Assembly: GCA_021831595.1 (NCBI GenBank) | Contig: JAKBMK010000025.1 | Coordinates: forward strand, 1 to 61,113 | Length of the DNA stretch: 61,113 bases | Direction of reading: 5' to 3' | From: a bacterium | Lineage (GTDB): Bacteria; Patescibacteriota; Minisyncoccia; Phycocordibacterales; UBA9973 | Part shown: positions 6,820-40,057 of the stretch, in pieces | How positions within the stretch are numbered: position 1 is the first letter of the stretch | Layout: the number at the start of each line of letters is the position of its first letter | The notes under the pieces: model-generated | What the model was told of the DNA's origin: nothing | Database searches by the model: none | What the model saw: the letters and a program-made list of their open reading frames with translations, nothing else | Position numbers and translations under genes: made by a program

Positions 6820-6842
6820 ATGTATATTTTTTAATTTTTCTA

Positions 6843-7448: not shown

Positions 7449-9638
7449 CTAACCCACAGCAATATCATCTGTGTGGTCCATAGGTTTTTCAAGCAAATCT
7501 CTAGGTTTTGCGCCATTTTTAGGACCTACGACGCCTCTTTCTTCGAGCATATCTATGAGTTTGGCAGCACGAGCGTATCCGACGCCTAACTTTCTCTGTA
7601 GATATGAAGTCGAAGCTTGCTGATCGCGGATGACTATCTCGCGAGCTTCTTCGAAGAGATCATCATCTCCATCGCTTCCACCCTCTAGACTGTCACTGAA
7701 TAGTCCACCTCCACCTTTCTCTATACTTCCTGAGAGTTCTATTTGATCTGGAATCTCATCCATATAGGCATCTTTTAGATAAGAGACGACTCTCTTGACC
7801 TCTTCTTCTGATATGAAGGCGCTTTGCAATCTTTCTGGCTGTGGGGATTCGGCACTAGTGTAGAGCATGTCTCCGGCACCAAGCAATTTCTCGGCTCCTC
7901 CTTGGTCGAGAATTGTTCTGGAGTCTACTTGTGAGGATACTTGCAATGCGACACGAGTAGGAACATTCGCTTTGATGAGACCGGTAATGACGTTCACTGA
8001 TGGACGCTGGGTCGAGAGTATGAGGTGGATACCGACAGCACGAGACATCTGGGCGAGACGGACGATAGCACTTTCGAGTTCTCTTGGATAGGCTTGCATG
8101 ATATCGGCGAGCTCGTCGATGATGACGACAATGTAAGGCATTCTCTCGGCTTCACCATCTTTGCTCTTTGCGAGAACTTTCGTATGGTAGCTCTCTATGT
8201 TCTGTACAGACTCGGCTTGGAGTATGTCGTAGCGACGATCCATTTCCTTCGCTGCCCATTTGAGAGCGAGGATTGTCTTCTTTGGATCGGTGATGACGGG
8301 AGTGAGTAGATGAGGAATCTTGTTGTACAGAGTGAGCTCGACTCTCTTTGGGTCCACCATGATGAGCTTCATATCTTCTGGTCCATTTCTATAGAGGAGG
8401 GAAGCGATGATGGAGTGGATAGTGACGGACTTACCCGAGCCAGTTGTTCCGGCGATGAGGGCATGAGGCATCTTCGCAAGATTGCCGAAGACAGCCTTAC
8501 CAGAGAGACCACGGCCGAGGGCGACAGTGAGAGGCTTCGGTGAATTCTGGAATTTATCGTCAGCTAGAAGTGTGGCGAGTCCAACTGTGGACTTCACTTT
8601 GTTTGGTATCTCGATACCGACGAGCGACTTGCCAGGGATAGGAGCTTCGATACGGATAGGGTGGGCGGCGAGGGCGAGAGCGAGGTCATTTTGAAGTCCG
8701 ACAATGCGTGAAAGTTTAACCCCTTGGGCAGGCTTCAATGCATAGCGGGTGACAGTAGGACCGACGGTGACCTCATCCATTTCTACTGGTATGCCGAAGT
8801 TGAGGAGTGTGCGCTGGATGATGTTCGTATTGCCTTTCATGTCGCCGATGTTTGGCTTGCCTTTGTCTTTCTCGAGGAGGTCGAGTGGGGGAGGGACATA
8901 GTTCGTCTTGAACTTTTTTTGTGGTGACAACTTTTCTTCTTTTGGAGCTTTTACCGTCACTTCTTCATACTCCAATTCTTGCTCTTTTGGAGATATCTCT
9001 TTCTTCTTCTCGATGATCTCTTCTATCTCCTCTACTGGCATCTCGGAATTTGTGAATGGAGTCGTGACATCTCTACTTAGAAATTCTTTGAGTCTGCGCC
9101 AGAGTGAGAGTAAGTTTGGACGTTCGTTGAAGAGGACGAGTAGGGAAGCGATGAGGGCTGTGCCGAGTAGGAGGATGCCCCCGTAGAGACCGAAGAGTTT
9201 CAAGAATGGCCAAGCTATCATGCTGCCGAGTCTTCCACCGTAAGTGAGGATAGTGGAAGGACCAGAACCATTGCTTGCAAGGTCCATGATACCGAGAGTG
9301 GAGAGCAGTAGTGCGAGCGCCATGATGGCGTGAATTCTCGCAATCCAGAACTTTCCTTCACGCATAAAAGAAACACCGATGATACCTAAAATAATAGGTA
9401 GTAAGTAGTATCCAAAACCAAAGAATGAGCTCAATACTTTGTCTGTAAAATTTCCGACAATTCCTGCTAAATGAAAAATTGATAATAAAATTAAAAGCCC
9501 CAAAACGAGGATTCCGATACCCCAGAGACTCTCGGTAGTTTCTTCTTTTAGCTCTACTTTTTTGCGTCTATTTTTAGTAGATTTCTTGCCTCTTTTTGGT
9601 TCATCAAATTCCTCTTCTTCTATATCTTTTTTGTTCAT
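7449..9638 (-). CDS. ftsK: DNA translocase FtsK/SpoIIIE
   Basis: N-terminal TM domain, AGTTGSGKS, IIDELAD, LSTQRPSV and the gamma domain LQRKLGVGYARAAKLID. The ATG is at 9638. Confidence 0.97.
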   Translation of the reverse strand: MNKKDIEEEEFDEPKRGKKSTKNRRKKVELKEETTESLWGIGILVLGLLILLSIFHLAGIVGNFTDKVLSSFFGFGYYLLPIILGIIGVSFMREGKFWIARIHAIMALALLLSTLGIMDLASNGSGPSTILTYGGRLGSMIAWPFLKLFGLYGGILLLGTALIASLLVLFNERPNLLSLWRRLKEFLSRDVTTPFTNSEMPVEEIEEIIEKKKEISPKEQELEYEEVTVKAPKEEKLSPQKKFKTNYVPPPLDLLEKDKGKPNIGDMKGNTNIIQRTLLNFGIPVEMDEVTVGPTVTRYALKPAQGVKLSRIVGLQNDLALALAAHPIRIEAPIPGKSLVGIEIPNKVKSTVGLATLLADDKFQNSPKPLTVALGRGLSGKAVFGNLAKMPHALIAGTTGSGKSVTIHSIIASLLYRNGPEDMKLIMVDPKRVELTLYNKIPHLLTPVITDPKKTILALKWAAKEMDRRYDILQAESVQNIESYHTKVLAKSKDGEAERMPYIVVIIDELADIMQAYPRELESAIVRLAQMSRAVGIHLILSTQRPSVNVITGLIKANVPTRVALQVSSQVDSRTILDQGGAEKLLGAGDMLYTSAESPQPERLQSAFISEEEVKRVVSYLKDAYMDEIPDQIELSGSIEKGGGGLFSDSLEGGSDGDDDLFEEAREIVIRDQQASTSYLQRKLGVGYARAAKLIDMLEERGVVGPKNGAKPRDLLEKPMDHTDDIAVG

Positions 9639-9755
9639 CCCGTTAGAAGCAGGTCGCGATCTATTTGATAAGAAATACAACCCGCAAGCTTAAAATTATA
9701 AATAATAAAATCAAAAAATGTGTCCAGTTTATCGTGACCGCGGCTTCTAACGGGA
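9638..9755. mobile_element. ~118-bp MITE-like element with terminal inverted repeats at the ftsK start
   Basis: TCCCGTTAGAAGC..GGTCGCGAT (9638-9660) versus ATCGTGACC..GCTTCTAACGGGA (9731-9755). Confidence 0.75.
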
Positions 9756-9829
9756 CCATGTAAATGTATGTATATTATATCACTTATTAAATCATTTTAA
9801 AAATAGAAAAATATAGCAAATATGCTGTA

Positions 9830-9934
9830 TTTGGAATAGTTCCTGAGAAGGAACTTGCGCAAGGCCGACTGGGCCGAGCAGAGGAATTTTTCAGCAGAAA
9901 AATATACGTGTCCTTCGAGGGAAGCTATTCCAAA
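9830..9934. other. ~105-nt structured intergenic element (repeat or ncRNA)
   Basis: Closing stem TTTGGAATAGTTCC/GGAAGCTATTCCAAA with internal hairpins such as ATTTTTC-AGCA-GAAAAAT and GGCC-GACTG-GGCC. Confidence 0.45.
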
Positions 9935-10054
9935 GAAGGCTATAAATTATTTAAAAAATAATACCAGTCTTTTGCTATTGCCAAGAAAAAATATCGGTAT
10001 ATAATGGACGCATTAAAGACATAAATATCTTGTCGTATAGCAAGAAAAAGACAT

Positions 10055-10861
10055 ATGAATAACCAAAAAGACAACCAAAAGACAGGTTTGAATTCATACG
10101 GACAGTCAAATGTCCTAGACGTAAAAACGTTTGGTAATAAGCATGTTTATGAGTTTGCAAACAAAAAGACAGAGAAGCTCGTAACCGCTCTCTACATGGT
10201 TACAGATTGTATGGATACCGACGATGCACTGAAGGGGAAGTTACGCCAACTAGGAGTAGAATTGCTATCGGACATGTACAAACTTTCAACCCTTTCTCCG
10301 ATGGATAAACACATGCATTTGGGTGCCTCAATGTCGCGAGTAGATGAGATACTTTCGTTCGTAGAAATAGCCTACACAATCGGATTCATCTCAGAGATGA
10401 ATACGATGATATTGAAGAAAGAATTTATGATCCTGATAGGGGAGCTCGAGAGTCATCAGAAGAAGGACAAACACTTCACATTTACACTCGACGAAGAGAT
10501 GTTCTCTCTACCAGTTTTGCCAGAAGAAAATATCTCGAATAATGGAAATAATTTGGTAAAGGACAAAAGGACAAACTTCAACAATATGTCCTATACAAAT
10601 CCTGCATTGAGACATTCCATAAACCAAACACCAACAACCAAAAACCATATTCATTCTGTCTCTGATAAGAAAGAAAGAACTGACAAAATTCTTGCCTTGA
10701 TAAAGGACAAAGAAGTTTCCATAAAGGACATCTCAATTGCTTTCACGGACTGCTCAGAAAAGACAATCCAACGCGAACTGAACTCTCTCGTCGCAAAAGG
10801 ACAAATAAAGAAAACTGGATCCAAACGTTGGTCCCGCTACAAGTTAGTGGCTAGTAATTAG
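10055..10861 (+). CDS. Four-helix-bundle-like N-terminal domain plus C-terminal DeoR-type wHTH
   Basis: KTEKLVTALYMVTD...LKGKLR helical N-terminus and VSIKDIS...CSEKTIQRELNSLVAKGQIKKTGSKRWSRY. Confidence 0.75.
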   Translation: MNNQKDNQKTGLNSYGQSNVLDVKTFGNKHVYEFANKKTEKLVTALYMVTDCMDTDDALKGKLRQLGVELLSDMYKLSTLSPMDKHMHLGASMSRVDEILSFVEIAYTIGFISEMNTMILKKEFMILIGELESHQKKDKHFTFTLDEEMFSLPVLPEENISNNGNNLVKDKRTNFNNMSYTNPALRHSINQTPTTKNHIHSVSDKKERTDKILALIKDKEVSIKDISIAFTDCSEKTIQRELNSLVAKGQIKKTGSKRWSRYKLVASN

Positions 10862-11036
10862 TGATTAGTGACTAGTATTAAGCCCCCGAAAGCTTCGCTT
10901 TCGGGGGTGTGTTTTATTGTATTTTTTTCTAAAACCTAGTCACTCACTGCTAATCACTGCCCATTAATCACTAGCTACTAGCCCCTAATCTTGAGCCCCA
11001 TACTAGTCACTATTCACTAGCTACTAGAAGCTAATC
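10844..11036. repeat. Degenerate heptamer (YTAGTGA / reverse complement) arrays flanking a hairpin
   Basis: TTAGTGG CTAGTAA TTAGTGA TTAGTGA CTAGTAT at 10844-10878, with the reverse-orientation array at 10936-11036. Confidence 0.75.
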
Positions 11037-17157: not shown

Positions 17158-18084
17158 ATGAATATAAGGCAAAAACTTGAGATAATTAAGAAAAAATTAG
17201 GATTAACTCAGACAGAATTGGCAGAAAGATTTGGGGTTTCTTTTGTTGCCTTTAATAATTGGTGGCTAGGGAAGTCAATTCCTCGTAAAAAAGCAGAAGC
17301 CCTTATTGAAGATTTATTTTTGGAAGTTACAGGACAAAAAACAATTTCTATTGATAGACTCATAATAAAGAAAGAGAGACTACAAAAGAAATCTCTTGAA
17401 CACAAAAGTATTATAAATGAGATTTTGAATAATAAAGATATCTATGATGAATTTGTTTTAAAGCTTACTTATCATAGTAACAGCATAGAGGGTAGTACTC
17501 TTACAGAAGCTGATACGAAAGCAGTTCTCTTTGATAATGTTGCTTTGCAAAATAAGACATTGATTGAACAGTTGGAAGCAAAAAATCATCAAACGGCCTT
17601 AAATTATCTTTTTGATCATATTTTTAAAAAAAGAGAAATTAATGAAGATTTAATATTAAAACTTCACAGTATTCTTATGAATGGAATTAGACCAGATGCA
17701 GGATTCTATAGGAATCACGGAGTTCGAATTGTAGGAGTTAGCCTACCTACTGCCAATTATATAAGAGTTCCAGAAATAATTAAATCTATTATGATAAGTG
17801 TAAAAGGCATAAATAAAGATATTGTAAGTCTTTCCGCAAATGTGCATAGCCGTTTCGAGCAGGTTCATCCTTTTTCAGATGGGAATGGAAGAATCGGACG
17901 ATTGTTGATGACAGCAATGCTTTTAAAAGCAAACATGGCTCCAGCTGTTATCCATCAACAGCAAAAGCAGCTTTATTATACTTATCTTTATAAATCTCAA
18001 ACAAAAGATGACCAAAGTCAACTTGAGGATTTCTTGTGCGACACAATATTGAGTGGGTTTGATATCTTAGAACGAAATTTCTAA
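17158..18084 (+). CDS. XRE-HTH plus Fic domain protein
   Basis: LTQTELAERFGVSF HTH, SNSIEGS and the Fic motif HPFSDGNGRIGR. Confidence 0.93.
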   Translation: MNIRQKLEIIKKKLGLTQTELAERFGVSFVAFNNWWLGKSIPRKKAEALIEDLFLEVTGQKTISIDRLIIKKERLQKKSLEHKSIINEILNNKDIYDEFVLKLTYHSNSIEGSTLTEADTKAVLFDNVALQNKTLIEQLEAKNHQTALNYLFDHIFKKREINEDLILKLHSILMNGIRPDAGFYRNHGVRIVGVSLPTANYIRVPEIIKSIMISVKGINKDIVSLSANVHSRFEQVHPFSDGNGRIGRLLMTAMLLKANMAPAVIHQQQKQLYYTYLYKSQTKDDQSQLEDFLCDTILSGFDILERNF

Positions 18085-25674: not shown

Positions 25675-25890
25675 TCTTTCTAACCTTTCGCAAGAACCGT
25701 TCTTGCGACAAAAATCTTTCTAACCTTTCGCAAGAACCGTTCTTGCGACAAAGTTCTTGCGACAAATAAAAAGAAAAGGGCTCCTTAGGTAGTTAACCGT
25801 TCGGATCTCTCTTCGTATTGATATGGGTATTATATATCTTTGTGGTGCTACGGACTCGCAAGAACCGTTCTTGCGACAATCTTGCGACAA
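25673..25890. repeat. REP family A cluster downstream of RAYT-1
   Basis: A 40-bp tandem duplication (25673-25712 and 25713-25752) in which each unit contains TCGCAAGAACCGTTCTTGCGA, another copy at 25856-25876, and half copies. Confidence 0.9.
25768..25836 (-). ncRNA. Candidate small RNA, orphan copy of the NYN-linked motif
   Basis: Minus strand: TATAAT-N-ATATCAATACGAAGAGAGATCC...GGAGCCCTTTTCTTTTT, homologous to 29322-29391. Confidence 0.5.
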
Positions 25891-28519: not shown

Positions 28520-28712
28520 CAAAGGTCTTGCCTTTGTCGATGCGCAAGGACGGTCCTTGCGATTAATGAAGCAGGGCAAAGCTTTGCTTTGCCCTGCCGG
28601 TCTCTGTATTAACTAATGTGGCATTTTTGTTAATACTATGTTTCTAGTGTAAACCAAAACGCCATGTTGGTTTACACTTTGTCGATGCGCAAGGACCGTC
28701 CTTGCGCATCGA
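28520..28712. repeat. Cluster of REP families B and C plus other palindromes
   Basis: B at 28520-28536, C at 28543-28561 and 28682-28712, and other hairpins at 28571-28597 and 28646-28678. Confidence 0.88.
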
Positions 28713-32265: not shown

Positions 32266-32551
32266 ACCCTGTTAAATGATTTTAAATCTATGAAGAAGTT
32301 CTATTACATATATGTACTTCGTTCAGGTAAGGATAGTAATTTTTACGTTGGATATACAGAAGATTTAAAATCACGATTTAAGGAACATACAAGCGGTAAC
32401 GTTATCTCGACAAGAGAACGTCGGCCATTAGAAATAATTTATTCTGAGGCGTGTTTAAGTAAGAAAGATGCTCTTCACAGAGAAAAGTACTTAAAAACGT
32501 ATCACGGTAAATTATTTCTAAGGAATAGACTTAAATCGTATTTAACAGGGT
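32266..32551. mobile_element. TIR-bounded GIY-YIG element #1
   Basis: ACCCTGTTAAAT ... ATTTAACAGGGT, a perfect 12-bp IR tightly enclosing the gene. Confidence 0.75.
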
Positions 32552-32553
32552 AA
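32290..32553 (+). CDS. Small GIY-YIG nuclease #1
   Basis: YIYVL...FYVGYT..L..RFKEH...REKYLK. Confidence 0.92.
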   Translation: MKKFYYIYVLRSGKDSNFYVGYTEDLKSRFKEHTSGNVISTRERRPLEIIYSEACLSKKDALHREKYLKTYHGKLFLRNRLKSYLTG

Positions 32554-33090: not shown

Positions 33091-33212
33091 TCCCGTATGA
33101 AATCGCGGACGCGAATAATTCGGGAAACATTGTTATTATTAAAAAATTAATTTAAAAATGGGATTGTTGATTTAATAAATTATTTTAAGTCCGCGTCCTA
33201 TTTCATTCGGGA
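33091..33212. mobile_element. 122-bp MITE-like element at the rplL start codon
   Basis: TCCCGTATGAAAT-CGCGGAC ... GTCCGCG..ATTTCATTCGGGA, with ATGGA on both sides. Confidence 0.82.
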
Positions 33213-33716: not shown

Positions 33717-33991
33717 TCACGTATGAAATTCCTATGTTTTATACTTATGTACTACAGAGTAAAAAAAATGGAAGTTTGTATATCGGATATACGGGTGATT
33801 TACGAAAACGTTTTAAAGAACATAACGATAATAAGTCAACTTATACTCGGAACCGTGGACCATATGAAATTATTTATTACGAGTCGTGTCTAAACAAAGA
33901 TGACGCTCGGTCGAGAGAATTATATTTAAAAACAGGAATGGGAAGACGATATTTAAACGCACGTTTAAAACGTTTTCTATTTCATACGTGA
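33717..33991. mobile_element. TIR-bounded GIY-YIG element #2 at a start codon
   Basis: TCACGTATGAAAT ... ATTTCATACGTGA, a perfect 13-bp IR with ATGGA on both sides. Confidence 0.85.
33734..33991 (+). CDS. Small GIY-YIG nuclease #2
   Basis: MFYTYVLQS...LYIGYT.DL.KRFKEHN...RELYLKTG. Confidence 0.92.
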   Translation: MFYTYVLQSKKNGSLYIGYTGDLRKRFKEHNDNKSTYTRNRGPYEIIYYESCLNKDDARSRELYLKTGMGRRYLNARLKRFLFHT

Positions 33992-36177: not shown

Positions 36178-36480
36178 ATACGAATCACGATGTTAATGAA
36201 CAAAAATCACCAAGTAAAGCGGTTAAAGTAAGACCAATTGGTTTCGCTTTGTCCGCCAAAAGGCGGATTTTTCTTTTAAAGACATCGAGAATGATATTTG
36301 AAAACTGAATGCTGTTCCGACTCACTGTTATCCTTTATTTTAGAGGGTCTTTTGAATCGAGTCGGAAACAGAACACAACAATAATAGATGTATAAGCACA
36401 GAAGGAAGCGGTTCCTGAGAGTGTTTACATCGGATCATGTTTTGCCCTAGAGACAGAGCATGATCGTTTTTAAATTTCCT

Positions 36481-39945
<3,465 letters not shown>

Positions 39946-40057
39946 GGAAATTTGGAAATTATTATTGTTGTGTCAGCATTCAGTTTTCAGATATTATTTG
40001 TATCTGAGAAAGGTCGCCTTCGCGTAAAGCTACGGCGAACCGAAGTTGAAAATTTTG

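Follow-up and report, generated by a model that had tools for sequence, protein, structure and literature searches.

The closest known system to the DNA element described here is that of the Ssn nucleases with their NTS/SRM hairpin repeats (Chenal et al., 2025, PMC11893778). According to the available part of that paper, these are single-domain GIY-YIG proteins of about 90 aa (SsnA has 94 aa), with a hairpin-forming repeat on either side of the gene; the repeat is also found in many gene-less copies, and the authors call the layout "identical to" insertion sequences. TCCCG.../...CGGGA is present in the NTS stem (available part of PMC11893778) and also in the element ends described below. Elements of 100–150 bp with terminal inverted repeats (TIRs), a short target duplication and many copies, as found here, are also known as Correia/NEMIS elements and other miniature inverted-repeat transposable elements (MITEs), which are co-transcribed with neighbouring genes and form long RNA hairpins (available part of PMC3184786). 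Here we analyse a 118-bp element at the start codon of the cell-division gene ftsK in a 61,113-nt stretch of DNA from a member of the Patescibacteriota (contig JAKBMK010000025.1, assembly GCA_021831595.1), the whole of which is referred to as the window. With a probability of roughly 85%, we consider this element to be a non-autonomous, gene-less copy of a family of very small mobile elements in Patescibacteria, whose full-length form of ~277 bp holds only the gene for a single-domain GIY-YIG nuclease of 84–85 aa. The family inserts at an ATG, almost always that of a gene start, in one orientation, with a duplication of 3–4 bases and rebuilding of the ATG.

The element at the ftsK start codon

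An earlier note made from the sequence alone had described a 118-bp TIR element at the ftsK ATG, and every detail that it observed was recovered: the arms, the inner inverted repeat, the AT-rich middle and the terminal A that supplies the first base of the start codon. The 32-aa open reading frame (ORF) from the ATG at 9759 to 9661 is likewise present in the ORF list, with the peptide as quoted. The features of the locus are listed below in window coordinates.

7449..9638, minus strand: ftsK, 729 aa, with FtsK_4TM, alpha, SpoIIIE and gamma domains
9636..9638, minus strand: rebuilt ftsK start codon, formed by the A of the element and TG of the target
9638..9755, minus strand: gene-less (MITE-like) element, 118 bp, with TCCCGTTAGAAG ends and the inner stem CGCGGTC
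9638..9649, minus strand: gene-proximal TIR CTTCTAACGGGA, whose last A (9638) is the A of the ftsK ATG
9655..9661, minus strand: 3′ half of the inner stem, GATCGCG
9736..9742, minus strand: 5′ half of the inner stem, CGCGGTC
9744..9755, minus strand: gene-distal TIR TCCCGTTAGAAG
9756..9759, minus strand: original start ATGG, retained as left-hand copy of the duplicated target and matching the ATGG(CA) start of ftsK in relatives
9661..9759, minus strand: upstream ORF (uORF) of 32 codons opened by the retained ATG (9759), with the stop TAG 22 nt before the rebuilt ATG
9774..9801, minus strand: promoter-like site TTTAAA-16-TATAAT with TG before the −10 box and 14 nt between the end of this box and the retained ATG

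On the minus strand the upstream junction reads ...TTTACATGG followed by TCCCGTTAGAAGCCGCGGTCACGAT, and the downstream junction ...ATCGCGACCTGCTTCTAACGGGA followed by TGAACAAAAAAG. The outer arms are reverse-complementary at 12/12 nt, which are the terminal inverted repeats expected of a MITE, and the inner 7-bp stem consists of six Watson-Crick pairs and one G-T pair. Between the two stems the left side has a single unpaired base and the right side, opposite to it, has five (ACCTG); the latter correspond to the CTR motif that precedes the terminal 12 nt in 77 of the 80 copies sampled below. The middle of the element is AT-rich, with 22.5% G+C in the T-rich interior vs 49% in the arms. The 11-nt core of the arms has exactly two matches in the window, one per strand, and these are the two arms. 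As RNA, a stretch of 171 nt folds with −41 kcal/mol compared with −27.1 ± 3.7 kcal/mol for 200 shuffled sequences, none of which folded as well (z = −3.7), and the A of the ftsK start codon is paired within this fold. The arms match those of 28 other copies of the subfamily, and the stem covaries among the 29: position 18 is a GC pair in 21, AT in six and GT in two, and position 12 is GC in 22 and AT in five. In keeping with a MITE the element is small, multicopy and devoid of a mobility gene, since its 118 bp hold only the non-conserved 32-codon ORF. As the earlier note had stated, the target duplication at ftsK is imperfect, with the flanks ATGG on the left and TGAA on the right (TGG vs TGA).

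At gathering level, Rfam found only 23S, 5S and one tRNA in the whole window, and the element matched no family; at E ≤ 1 there were two far sub-threshold matches, the better one with 24.5 bits vs a gathering score of 228.9. No match was found in phage records, and a scan for consensus promoters inside the element on the gene strand found none.

The earlier note had allowed for the inverted repeat being universally conserved upstream of ftsK, and this is not the case. Among 30 orthologues of ftsK from the same genus, 24 are empty, four are occupied (G031, G080, G084 and G000, the genome under study), one is N-masked and one has an unrelated spacer of ~150 nt. The empty orthologues have a TGnTATAAT-like −10 box ~10–12 nt (in three of them 30–57 nt) before ATGGCAAAAAAAGAT, whereas the occupied ones carry a TCCCGTTAGA element at the ftsK ATG, as does a further genome beyond the 30 (G087, copy L117). 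In the N-masked genome (G062, copy L053) the masked part is the stretch from the promoter to ftsK, and G062 contains 25 pairs of ends of the TTAG type. A maximum-likelihood tree of FtsK places occupied genomes beside empty sisters with high support (G000 with G064 and G003, 100/98; G031 with G081, 100/100; G080 with G012, 100/100), and G084 adjoins the G080/G012 pair (97/94). By our reading of this tree, the pattern of occupancy would need four gains or losses. The occupying elements come from different subfamilies, so that the ftsK site was struck repeatedly. The cleanest pair is the empty G012, ...AAATTTATGGCAAAAAAAG (in short ...TTTATGGCAAAA), vs G080, which reads ...AAATTTATGG, the element, and then TGGCAAAAAAAG. 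The junction of G080, ...TTTATGG before the element and TGGCAAAA after it, shows a 3-bp duplication of TGG.

Strain-level variation at the site was followed in DNA contigs from four public metagenome runs, aligned to window positions 9000–10400. Run X2, possibly the source sample, contained both an occupied contig colinear with the window (depth 11.2) and an empty allele (depth 13.6), in which 9632 is joined to 9794 via 38 other letters, so that the gene strand has a different −10 region followed by ATGGCA. Another empty allele, in run X8, stems from a strain ~95% alike and joins 9632 to 9761 via five letters, giving ...CATTTATGGCAAAAAAAG behind the same promoter. The empty alleles indicate that the insertion is younger than the divergence of these strains. 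The gain at ftsK is thus recent: ATGGCA without the element is found in the nearest species and in two near-identical strains, and the site shows the presence/absence polymorphism of a MITE.

Insertion of the family at start codons

The genome under study (807 kb in 33 contigs, 35.6% G+C) has 14 copies, namely 13 pairs of ends with at most one mismatch and a copy at dnaX with one extra base in the right arm. Three end types occur (TCCCGTTAGAAG, TCCCGTAYGAAR and TCACGTAYGAAA). All copies end in ...GGGA or ...GTGA immediately before TG, and the ATG at each of them opens an ORF of 58–729 codons. The hosts include ftsK, dnaX, priA, rplL and rplI, a sodA-like superoxide dismutase gene and a pheT-like gene, among others; Pfam names the first five and the superoxide dismutase. 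The earlier note had assigned the ftsK copy to a second subfamily of the same elements as the one at rplL. Indeed, the inner CGCGGTC stem is common to the copies at ftsK, dnaX and priA, whereas the rplL copy has a TATGAAAT end and a different inner stem:

33091..33212, plus strand: gene-less family member, 122 bp, at the rplL ATG, with flanks ATGGA / TGGA

The dnaX copy (contig C29:10094-10173) is 80 nt long, its extra base in the right arm is an A, and from the retained ATG onwards it contains no stop and keeps the reading frame; judging from this sequence, DnaX may carry an N-terminal extension of 28 residues.

That no other copies exist, a further outcome considered by the earlier note, is contradicted by the 14 copies in this genome and by the genus as a whole: pairs of TCCCGTTAGA...TCTAACGGGA spaced 30–420 nt apart were found 258 times in 46 of 93 genus genomes, with up to 31 per genome, and the reversed control pattern had no match in the same 93 genomes. 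Of 61 relatives, 7 have the TACG/TATG end type, which thus extends to a second family within the order. A degenerate pattern with the ATG built in matched 24 of 301 evenly drawn Patescibacteria genomes (19 of 248 genera) vs two control matches. The exact 20-mer of right end plus ATG is present in at least 122 public genome stretches. Among the matches listed (80 titles), all are from Patescibacteria lineages or unnamed bacteria, and they include Nomurabacteria, Kaiserbacteria, Moranbacteria, Buchananbacteria, Taylorbacteria, Sungbacteria, Zambryskibacteria, Paceibacterota and metagenome-assembled genomes (MAGs) labelled Saccharibacteria. Exact ends across such different lineages, together with the patchy spread, point to horizontal movement. 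Full-text searching of the literature found no description of start-codon-inserting MITEs or of GIY-YIG-only transposons, and this large family is thus apparently undescribed.

We examined a sample of 80 distinct copies of the TTAG type from 30 genomes, with the strand chosen by script as the one on which the junction forms a start codon with the longest ORF. All 80 have A plus TG at one element end, and in 77 the ORF that starts there is 54 codons or longer, or continues without a stop to the edge of the retrieved DNA. The orientation, assigned by a strict rule (CTR preceding the terminal 12 nt at the gene-side end and not at the other), is the same in 77 copies, inverted in one (L056) and ambiguous in two. 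Identity between the flank ends (n = 79) spans 4 nt in 31 copies, 3 nt in 18, 5 nt in three and 2 nt in one. Where the left flank is ATGNN, NN equals the right-hand NN in 31 of 40 copies, compared with a mean of 11.5 and a maximum of 22 after shuffling (0 of 10,000 shuffles reached 31), and where it is ATGN, N matches in 18 of 21. The 3–4-bp duplication (TGN/TGNN) is therefore genuine and not an effect of composition, and the family has the target duplication of a MITE. Through the terminal A of the ...CGGGA end and the duplicated TG, an intact ATG is rebuilt in front of an unchanged host reading frame.

The consensus target of the 52 copies with an exact duplication is T (30/52)-A-T-G-R (47/52)-A (41/52). 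According to crude ORF calls in the genome under study (833 ORFs, 91% coding and 9% non-coding sequence), ATGRA coincides with 299 called starts, while a further 320 sites lie elsewhere in non-coding DNA and 5,236 are internal to ORFs. A T precedes ATGRA at 200 of the 299 starts vs 101 of the 320 other non-coding sites. Starts themselves thus favour T-ATG-R-A, and the preference of the element mirrors the start context of its host. Among related genomes, orthologous sites at ftsK, topA and ssb are repeatedly occupied.

Within the 30–420 nt covered, the gaps between ends fall only into classes of 99–140 nt and 277–278 nt, apart from one tandem pair of 243 nt, and 62 of 74 gene-less copies are 117–121 nt long. 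The two ends are not equivalent beyond 12 nt. At the gene-side end the hairpin is followed by CTR, and at the far end a CGGG able to pair with the terminus lies 21–39 nt inside in 20 of 74 copies vs 2 of 74 at the mirror position.

The tandem arrangement in G086 consists of two elements (L093 and L090) that share one TGAA, the rebuilt ATGAA having been struck again. In five other copies (L072, L087, L103, L137 and L138), located at no fewer than three different genes, the left flank is ATGTC and the right flank TGGA or TGAA. From these sequences it looks as if flank bases are able to travel with the element.

The full-length form, its expression and alternative readings

Five of the 80 copies are full-length, with 277–278 bp, and in all five an 84-codon ORF fills element positions 18/19 to 269/270 as the sole gene. 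The terminal repeat contains the stop codon TAA of this ORF, with 4 nt between the stop and the host ATG, and the retained host start is in frame with the nuclease ORF when the duplication is 3 bp (L069). Hence a partner with the same ends as the gene-less copies exists within the gap range searched, and its sole product is a GIY-YIG nuclease. The linked GIY-YIG genes anticipated by the earlier note are found in this form, and the window itself has a 275-bp relative:

33717..33991, plus strand: full-length family member, 275 bp, with ends TCACGTATGAAAT, containing the nuclease ORF only; flanks ATGGA / TGGA
33734..33991, plus strand: GIY-YIG nuclease ORF, 85 aa, whose stop TGA overlaps the rebuilt host ATG

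The host of this member is the ATG of a 205-aa gene (METLAKLFGG...) in which no Pfam match was found. In G086 and G072 the same host gene bears a gene-less copy of the TTAG type (L059 and L108).

Against Pfam PF01541 (GIY-YIG) the nucleases score 59.5 and 57.7 bits, with a cut-off of 22.6 and E-values of 4e-16 (TTAG-type) and 1.4e-15, and the nuclease of the window is 61% identical to the TTAG-type ones over 77 residues. Invariant in seven nuclease sequences are Y3, Y5, Y16, G18, R26, H30, E50, R61 and E62. The nearest solved structures by sequence are the UPF0213 proteins 1zg2 (1.2e-8) and 1ywl (7e-4), followed by Slx1. A homologue (E ≤ 1e-8) is encoded by 73 of the 93 genus genomes. Of the 23 genomes with a close nuclease (E ≤ 1e-35) 22 have at least one TTAG pair, vs 24 of 70 without it (Fisher P 1e-7, in a comparison in which related genomes are not independent and a full-length copy contributes both a nuclease and a pair). 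Similar forms of 270–292 bp, with a GIY-YIG-like N-terminus when read by eye, are present in distant families of the phylum.

Other small GIY-YIG ORFs occur nearby and elsewhere in the genome. One of 87 aa at window 32290-32553 is bounded by a different 11-nt inverted repeat, CCCTGTTAAAT / ATTTAACAGGG, and lies 40 nt upstream of rplJ, off any start codon; this locus may be a sister family with another target. Two more lie beside tRNA-like sequence (contig C18:19350-20150), and one of them seems to follow a split or duplicated 5′ part of a tRNA.

Movement of the family could proceed by cleavage of element ends and target by the nuclease of a full-length relative. The enzyme may recognise hairpins of single-stranded DNA as Ssn nucleases do, and host repair would then complete the move. 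In this respect the non-equivalent ends recall the strand-specific, hairpin-guided cutting of single-stranded DNA by Ssn (available part of PMC11893778).

The promoter-like site of ftsK, with its −10 box ending at 9774, is intact and has the same layout in empty relatives, and no terminator-like site was found between it and ftsK. The gene would accordingly be read from its own promoter, through the element. The 16S rRNA of the genome under study ends in ...GTGGAATAATTCAATTT (contig C16, ~17850-17902, L140) and is without the CCTCC anti-Shine-Dalgarno, a motif that a survey reports in only 48% of Parcubacteria (available part of PMC9297842). As CCTCC is absent from the 16S rRNA, no Shine-Dalgarno spacing is lost by the insertion. 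A TAnAAT box is found in 31 of the 80 copies, mostly ending 11–15 nt before the element. With boxes so near, many hosts appear to have very short leaders, in which the retained ATG keeps a privileged position. Ribosomes may start at this 5′-proximal ATG, translate the uORF and melt the 12+7-bp hairpin. At ftsK the uORF extends across the left arm and the loop, and its stop codon is 22 nt short of the rebuilt ATG, such that a terminating ribosome would have melted the stem and could then initiate on ftsK. Alternatively, RNase III might cut the stem and recreate a short leader; rnc, encoding this enzyme, is present in the genome, and the stems of Correia elements are cut by RNase III. Translational bypassing, known from gene 60 of T4, would be another conceivable route.

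The peptide of the uORF was suspected by the earlier note to be incidental, and the comparison of copies agrees. Across copies the uORFs opened by the retained ATG have 8–39 codons, with a median of 18. They share only the residues encoded by the inverted repeat (M-x-PVR... or M-x-PLE...) and then diverge in sequence and length. Pfam gave no match in the 32-residue peptide, and its hydrophobicity follows from the T-rich interior. By its sequence the ftsK uORF is a by-product of the retained host ATG; it is probably translated, the peptide itself being incidental. A fusion of the peptide to FtsK was rejected, as the retained ATG and ftsK are in different frames and, within the element, the frame of ftsK is closed by a TAA. 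An in-frame TTG start at 9680 was also rejected; it would add 14 residues found in no relative.

A wider proposal, which we put forward tentatively and at slightly less than even odds, is that these elements are start-codon parasites forming a new class of autonomous mobile DNA. Their sole gene would encode an Ssn-like mobility enzyme of 84 aa, expressed from the host promoter and the first ATG, and coupling by stop-N4-ATG or TGATG would return ribosomes to the host gene. The gene-less copy at ftsK would follow the same logic with a meaningless uORF, and the T-ATG-R-A preference would have evolved to mimic the start context in bacteria without Shine-Dalgarno pairing.

Several observations weigh against our main reading. 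Exceptions to the placement at gene starts are L058 and L106, with ORFs of 29 and 4 codons, and L093, which is followed by a second element in tandem. An exact duplication is missing in 26 of 79 copies, and the upstream start is lost in 18 of 79. At ftsK, the junction in the genome under study is not clean when compared with the empty alleles: two extra bases (CA) lie left of ATGG, and the right junction is TGAA instead of TGG, with the A-run one base shorter and the frame kept (ATG AAC AAA vs ATG GCA AAA). Either later changes followed a clean event, or the event was imprecise and carried donor flank; the latter would fit a copy-by-repair mechanism and the recurrent, non-matching ATGTC left flank. 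The interior of the ftsK element could be aligned neither with other copies nor with the nuclease gene, there being AT-rich matches of 18–23 nt to four copies only, and descent by internal deletion is therefore hypothetical. No nuclease gene bounded by TCCCGTTAGA ends was found in the genome under study, and the ends of its sole full-length member share 9 of 12 terminal positions with those of the ftsK copy, which may therefore be stranded. The MITE-rich genomes G086 (26 pairs), G062 (25) and G112 (10), all MAGs that are 89–98% complete, are without a close nuclease, and we know of no lone GIY-YIG domain that performs transposition. As for translation, the uORF ends early in most gene-less copies, so termination and reinitiation cannot be the general route to the host gene.

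In a rival reading of the same family, starts are not recognised as such. Insertion would then occur at any (T)ATGRA, and only the copies at start codons, which leave genes intact in a 91% coding genome, would survive. The target consensus is indeed what starts in this genome usually look like (ATGRA at 299 of the 833 called, with T before in 200 of these), the renewed insertion into the rebuilt ATGAA in the tandem pair of G086 (L093) indicates targeting at the sequence level, and L058 and L106 precede very short ORFs. Yet with 320 non-coding ATGRA sites away from called starts vs 299 at starts, ~48% of copies would be expected at starts if all non-coding sites were tolerated. The observed 77 of 80 gives P ~5e-21 (7e-11 with the leading T) in a test in which copies are partly orthologous, this genome with its crude ORF calls is a proxy for the genus, and insertions into promoters or terminators may also be selected against, which could narrow the gap. 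We conclude that sequence preference plus lethality inside genes is not enough to explain the start-codon position; in view of the caveats, we retain this explanation as an unlikely one. Less likely again is that the gene-less copies were moved by an unrelated transposase encoded elsewhere, with the GIY-YIG gene as a passenger between the same ends. TIRs with a 3–4-bp duplication are a hallmark of DDE transposition, some MITE-rich genomes lack a close nuclease, and the size census covers gaps of 30–420 nt only. Against this stand the presence of just two size classes, the larger filled end to end by the nuclease ORF in 5/5 copies, the similar 270–292-bp GIY-YIG-like forms read by eye in distant families, and the association of close nuclease and pairs (22/23 vs 24/70).

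The hairpin might also be a cis-regulatory structure of the host that controls translation of ftsK, either domesticated or never mobile. Such a role would suit the strong fold that pairs the A of the start codon, the conservation of the arms while the interior drifts, and the narrow length range (117–121 nt in 62/74). However, the hairpin is absent from 24 of 30 ftsK orthologues and from near-identical strains, the same ends are found at unrelated genes between flanking duplications, and no Rfam family comes near threshold. As an account of its origin this explanation is largely refuted, and we consider it very improbable. A chance inverted repeat beside ftsK is not implausible by length, as a 12-bp inverted repeat within ~100 nt is expected ~0.4 times per 61 kb of random sequence; it is refuted by identical ends at 258 places in the genus with no match of the reversed control, and by the 200 shuffles, none of which folds as well. 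Taken together, a gene-less copy of a nuclease-encoding mobile family is the reading we prefer for the ftsK element.

Should movement be carried out by a lone GIY-YIG domain of ~84 aa, these elements would be the smallest autonomous DNA transposon known to us. The enzyme class, if movement is driven by the nuclease, is one not listed among transposases, and the family may constitute a new class; Ssn nucleases, whose natural role is still debated, would gain a testable role as mobility enzymes. In some of the smallest known genomes the elements sit on the starts of essential genes (ftsK, dnaX, priA, topA, ssb and ribosomal proteins), and must therefore be nearly harmless there. They provide a natural experiment on translation initiation in bacteria without an anti-Shine-Dalgarno sequence. 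A practical consequence is that gene prediction at element sites will place starts wrongly or extend N-termini falsely, and the exact, recurrent ends are a marker for strain-level variation in Patescibacteria.

The window contains further repeats. The 23S rRNA gene (36480-39947) has 3468 nt vs 2925 nt in the Rfam model, and a palindrome at 39164-39283 has arms of 59 nt; this suggests at least one insertion in the rRNA. A perfect 25-nt inverted pair, 126 nt apart, lies at 28537-28712. Three copies of the palindrome TCGCAAGAACCGTTCTTGCGA are located at 25688-25876, and four copies of the hairpin GCAAAGGCAAGACCTTTGC at 6833, 25891, 26995 and 42777. At 10844-11034 there are TAGT-rich, imperfect repeat runs (TTAGTGACTAGT-like), and similar runs are seen upstream of ftsK in several relatives.

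Comparison with known systems

GIY-YIG homing endonucleases, whether intron-encoded or free-standing (I-TevI and the Seg proteins of T4), resemble the nuclease described here as the only gene of a selfish insert, and repeated occupation of orthologous sites (here at ftsK, topA and ssb) is a further likeness; homing enzymes have an added DNA-binding domain, need long homologous flanks and show neither TIRs nor target duplications. Against NCBIfam TIGR01453 (group I intron endonuclease) the nuclease scores 23.5 bits, below the cut-off of 56.05. Rickettsia palindromic elements are mini-elements tolerated inside or at the edge of essential genes, where they are inserted in frame within the coding sequence. 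In contrast, the family here sits on the start codon, and most of its copies carry stops in the host frame, the dnaX copy being in frame and open. As in the present family, the two ends of IS200/IS605 and REP/RAYT elements bear hairpins that differ, insertion is in one orientation relative to a short, asymmetric target, and small derivatives without a gene exist. IS200/IS605 and REP/RAYT rely on HUH tyrosine transposases and make no target duplication. The elements here differ from IS200/IS605-derived PATEs in that a duplication is present and the full-length form holds only GIY-YIG.

Correia elements have a TA target and are not tied to start codons, whereas the duplication here is TGN/TGNN and the ends are of unrelated sequence. 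Correia elements have no known autonomous partner, unlike the present family, which has a full-length partner that encodes a nuclease and not a transposase. Neisseria REP2 and the Borrelia inverted repeats are likewise dispersed directly upstream of ORFs and provide an ATG (available part of PMC3184786). They bring their own promoter, ribosome-binding site and ATG and have no TIRs or duplication (available part of PMC3184786). The element described here gives only one base of the ATG.

Ssn nucleases (cd10448 in CDD) cleave single-stranded DNA only, a few nt away from the hairpin. NTS is one 30-nt hairpin, and the available part of the paper reports no TIR pair, target duplication, link to start codons or mobility; within the same part, neither "Patescibacteria" nor "start codon" is mentioned (PMC11893778). 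In a more recent preprint, as far as its available text goes, the SsnA repeats serve as a benchmark only (10.64898/2026.09.22.753630). At the sequence level the nuclease described here has the Ssn layout, a single domain of ~90 aa with a hairpin repeat on both sides. Furthermore, the essential residues Y6, Y17 and E64 of SsnA would correspond, from their similar spacing and not from an alignment, to the invariant Y5, Y16 and E62 of this family (available part of PMC11893778).

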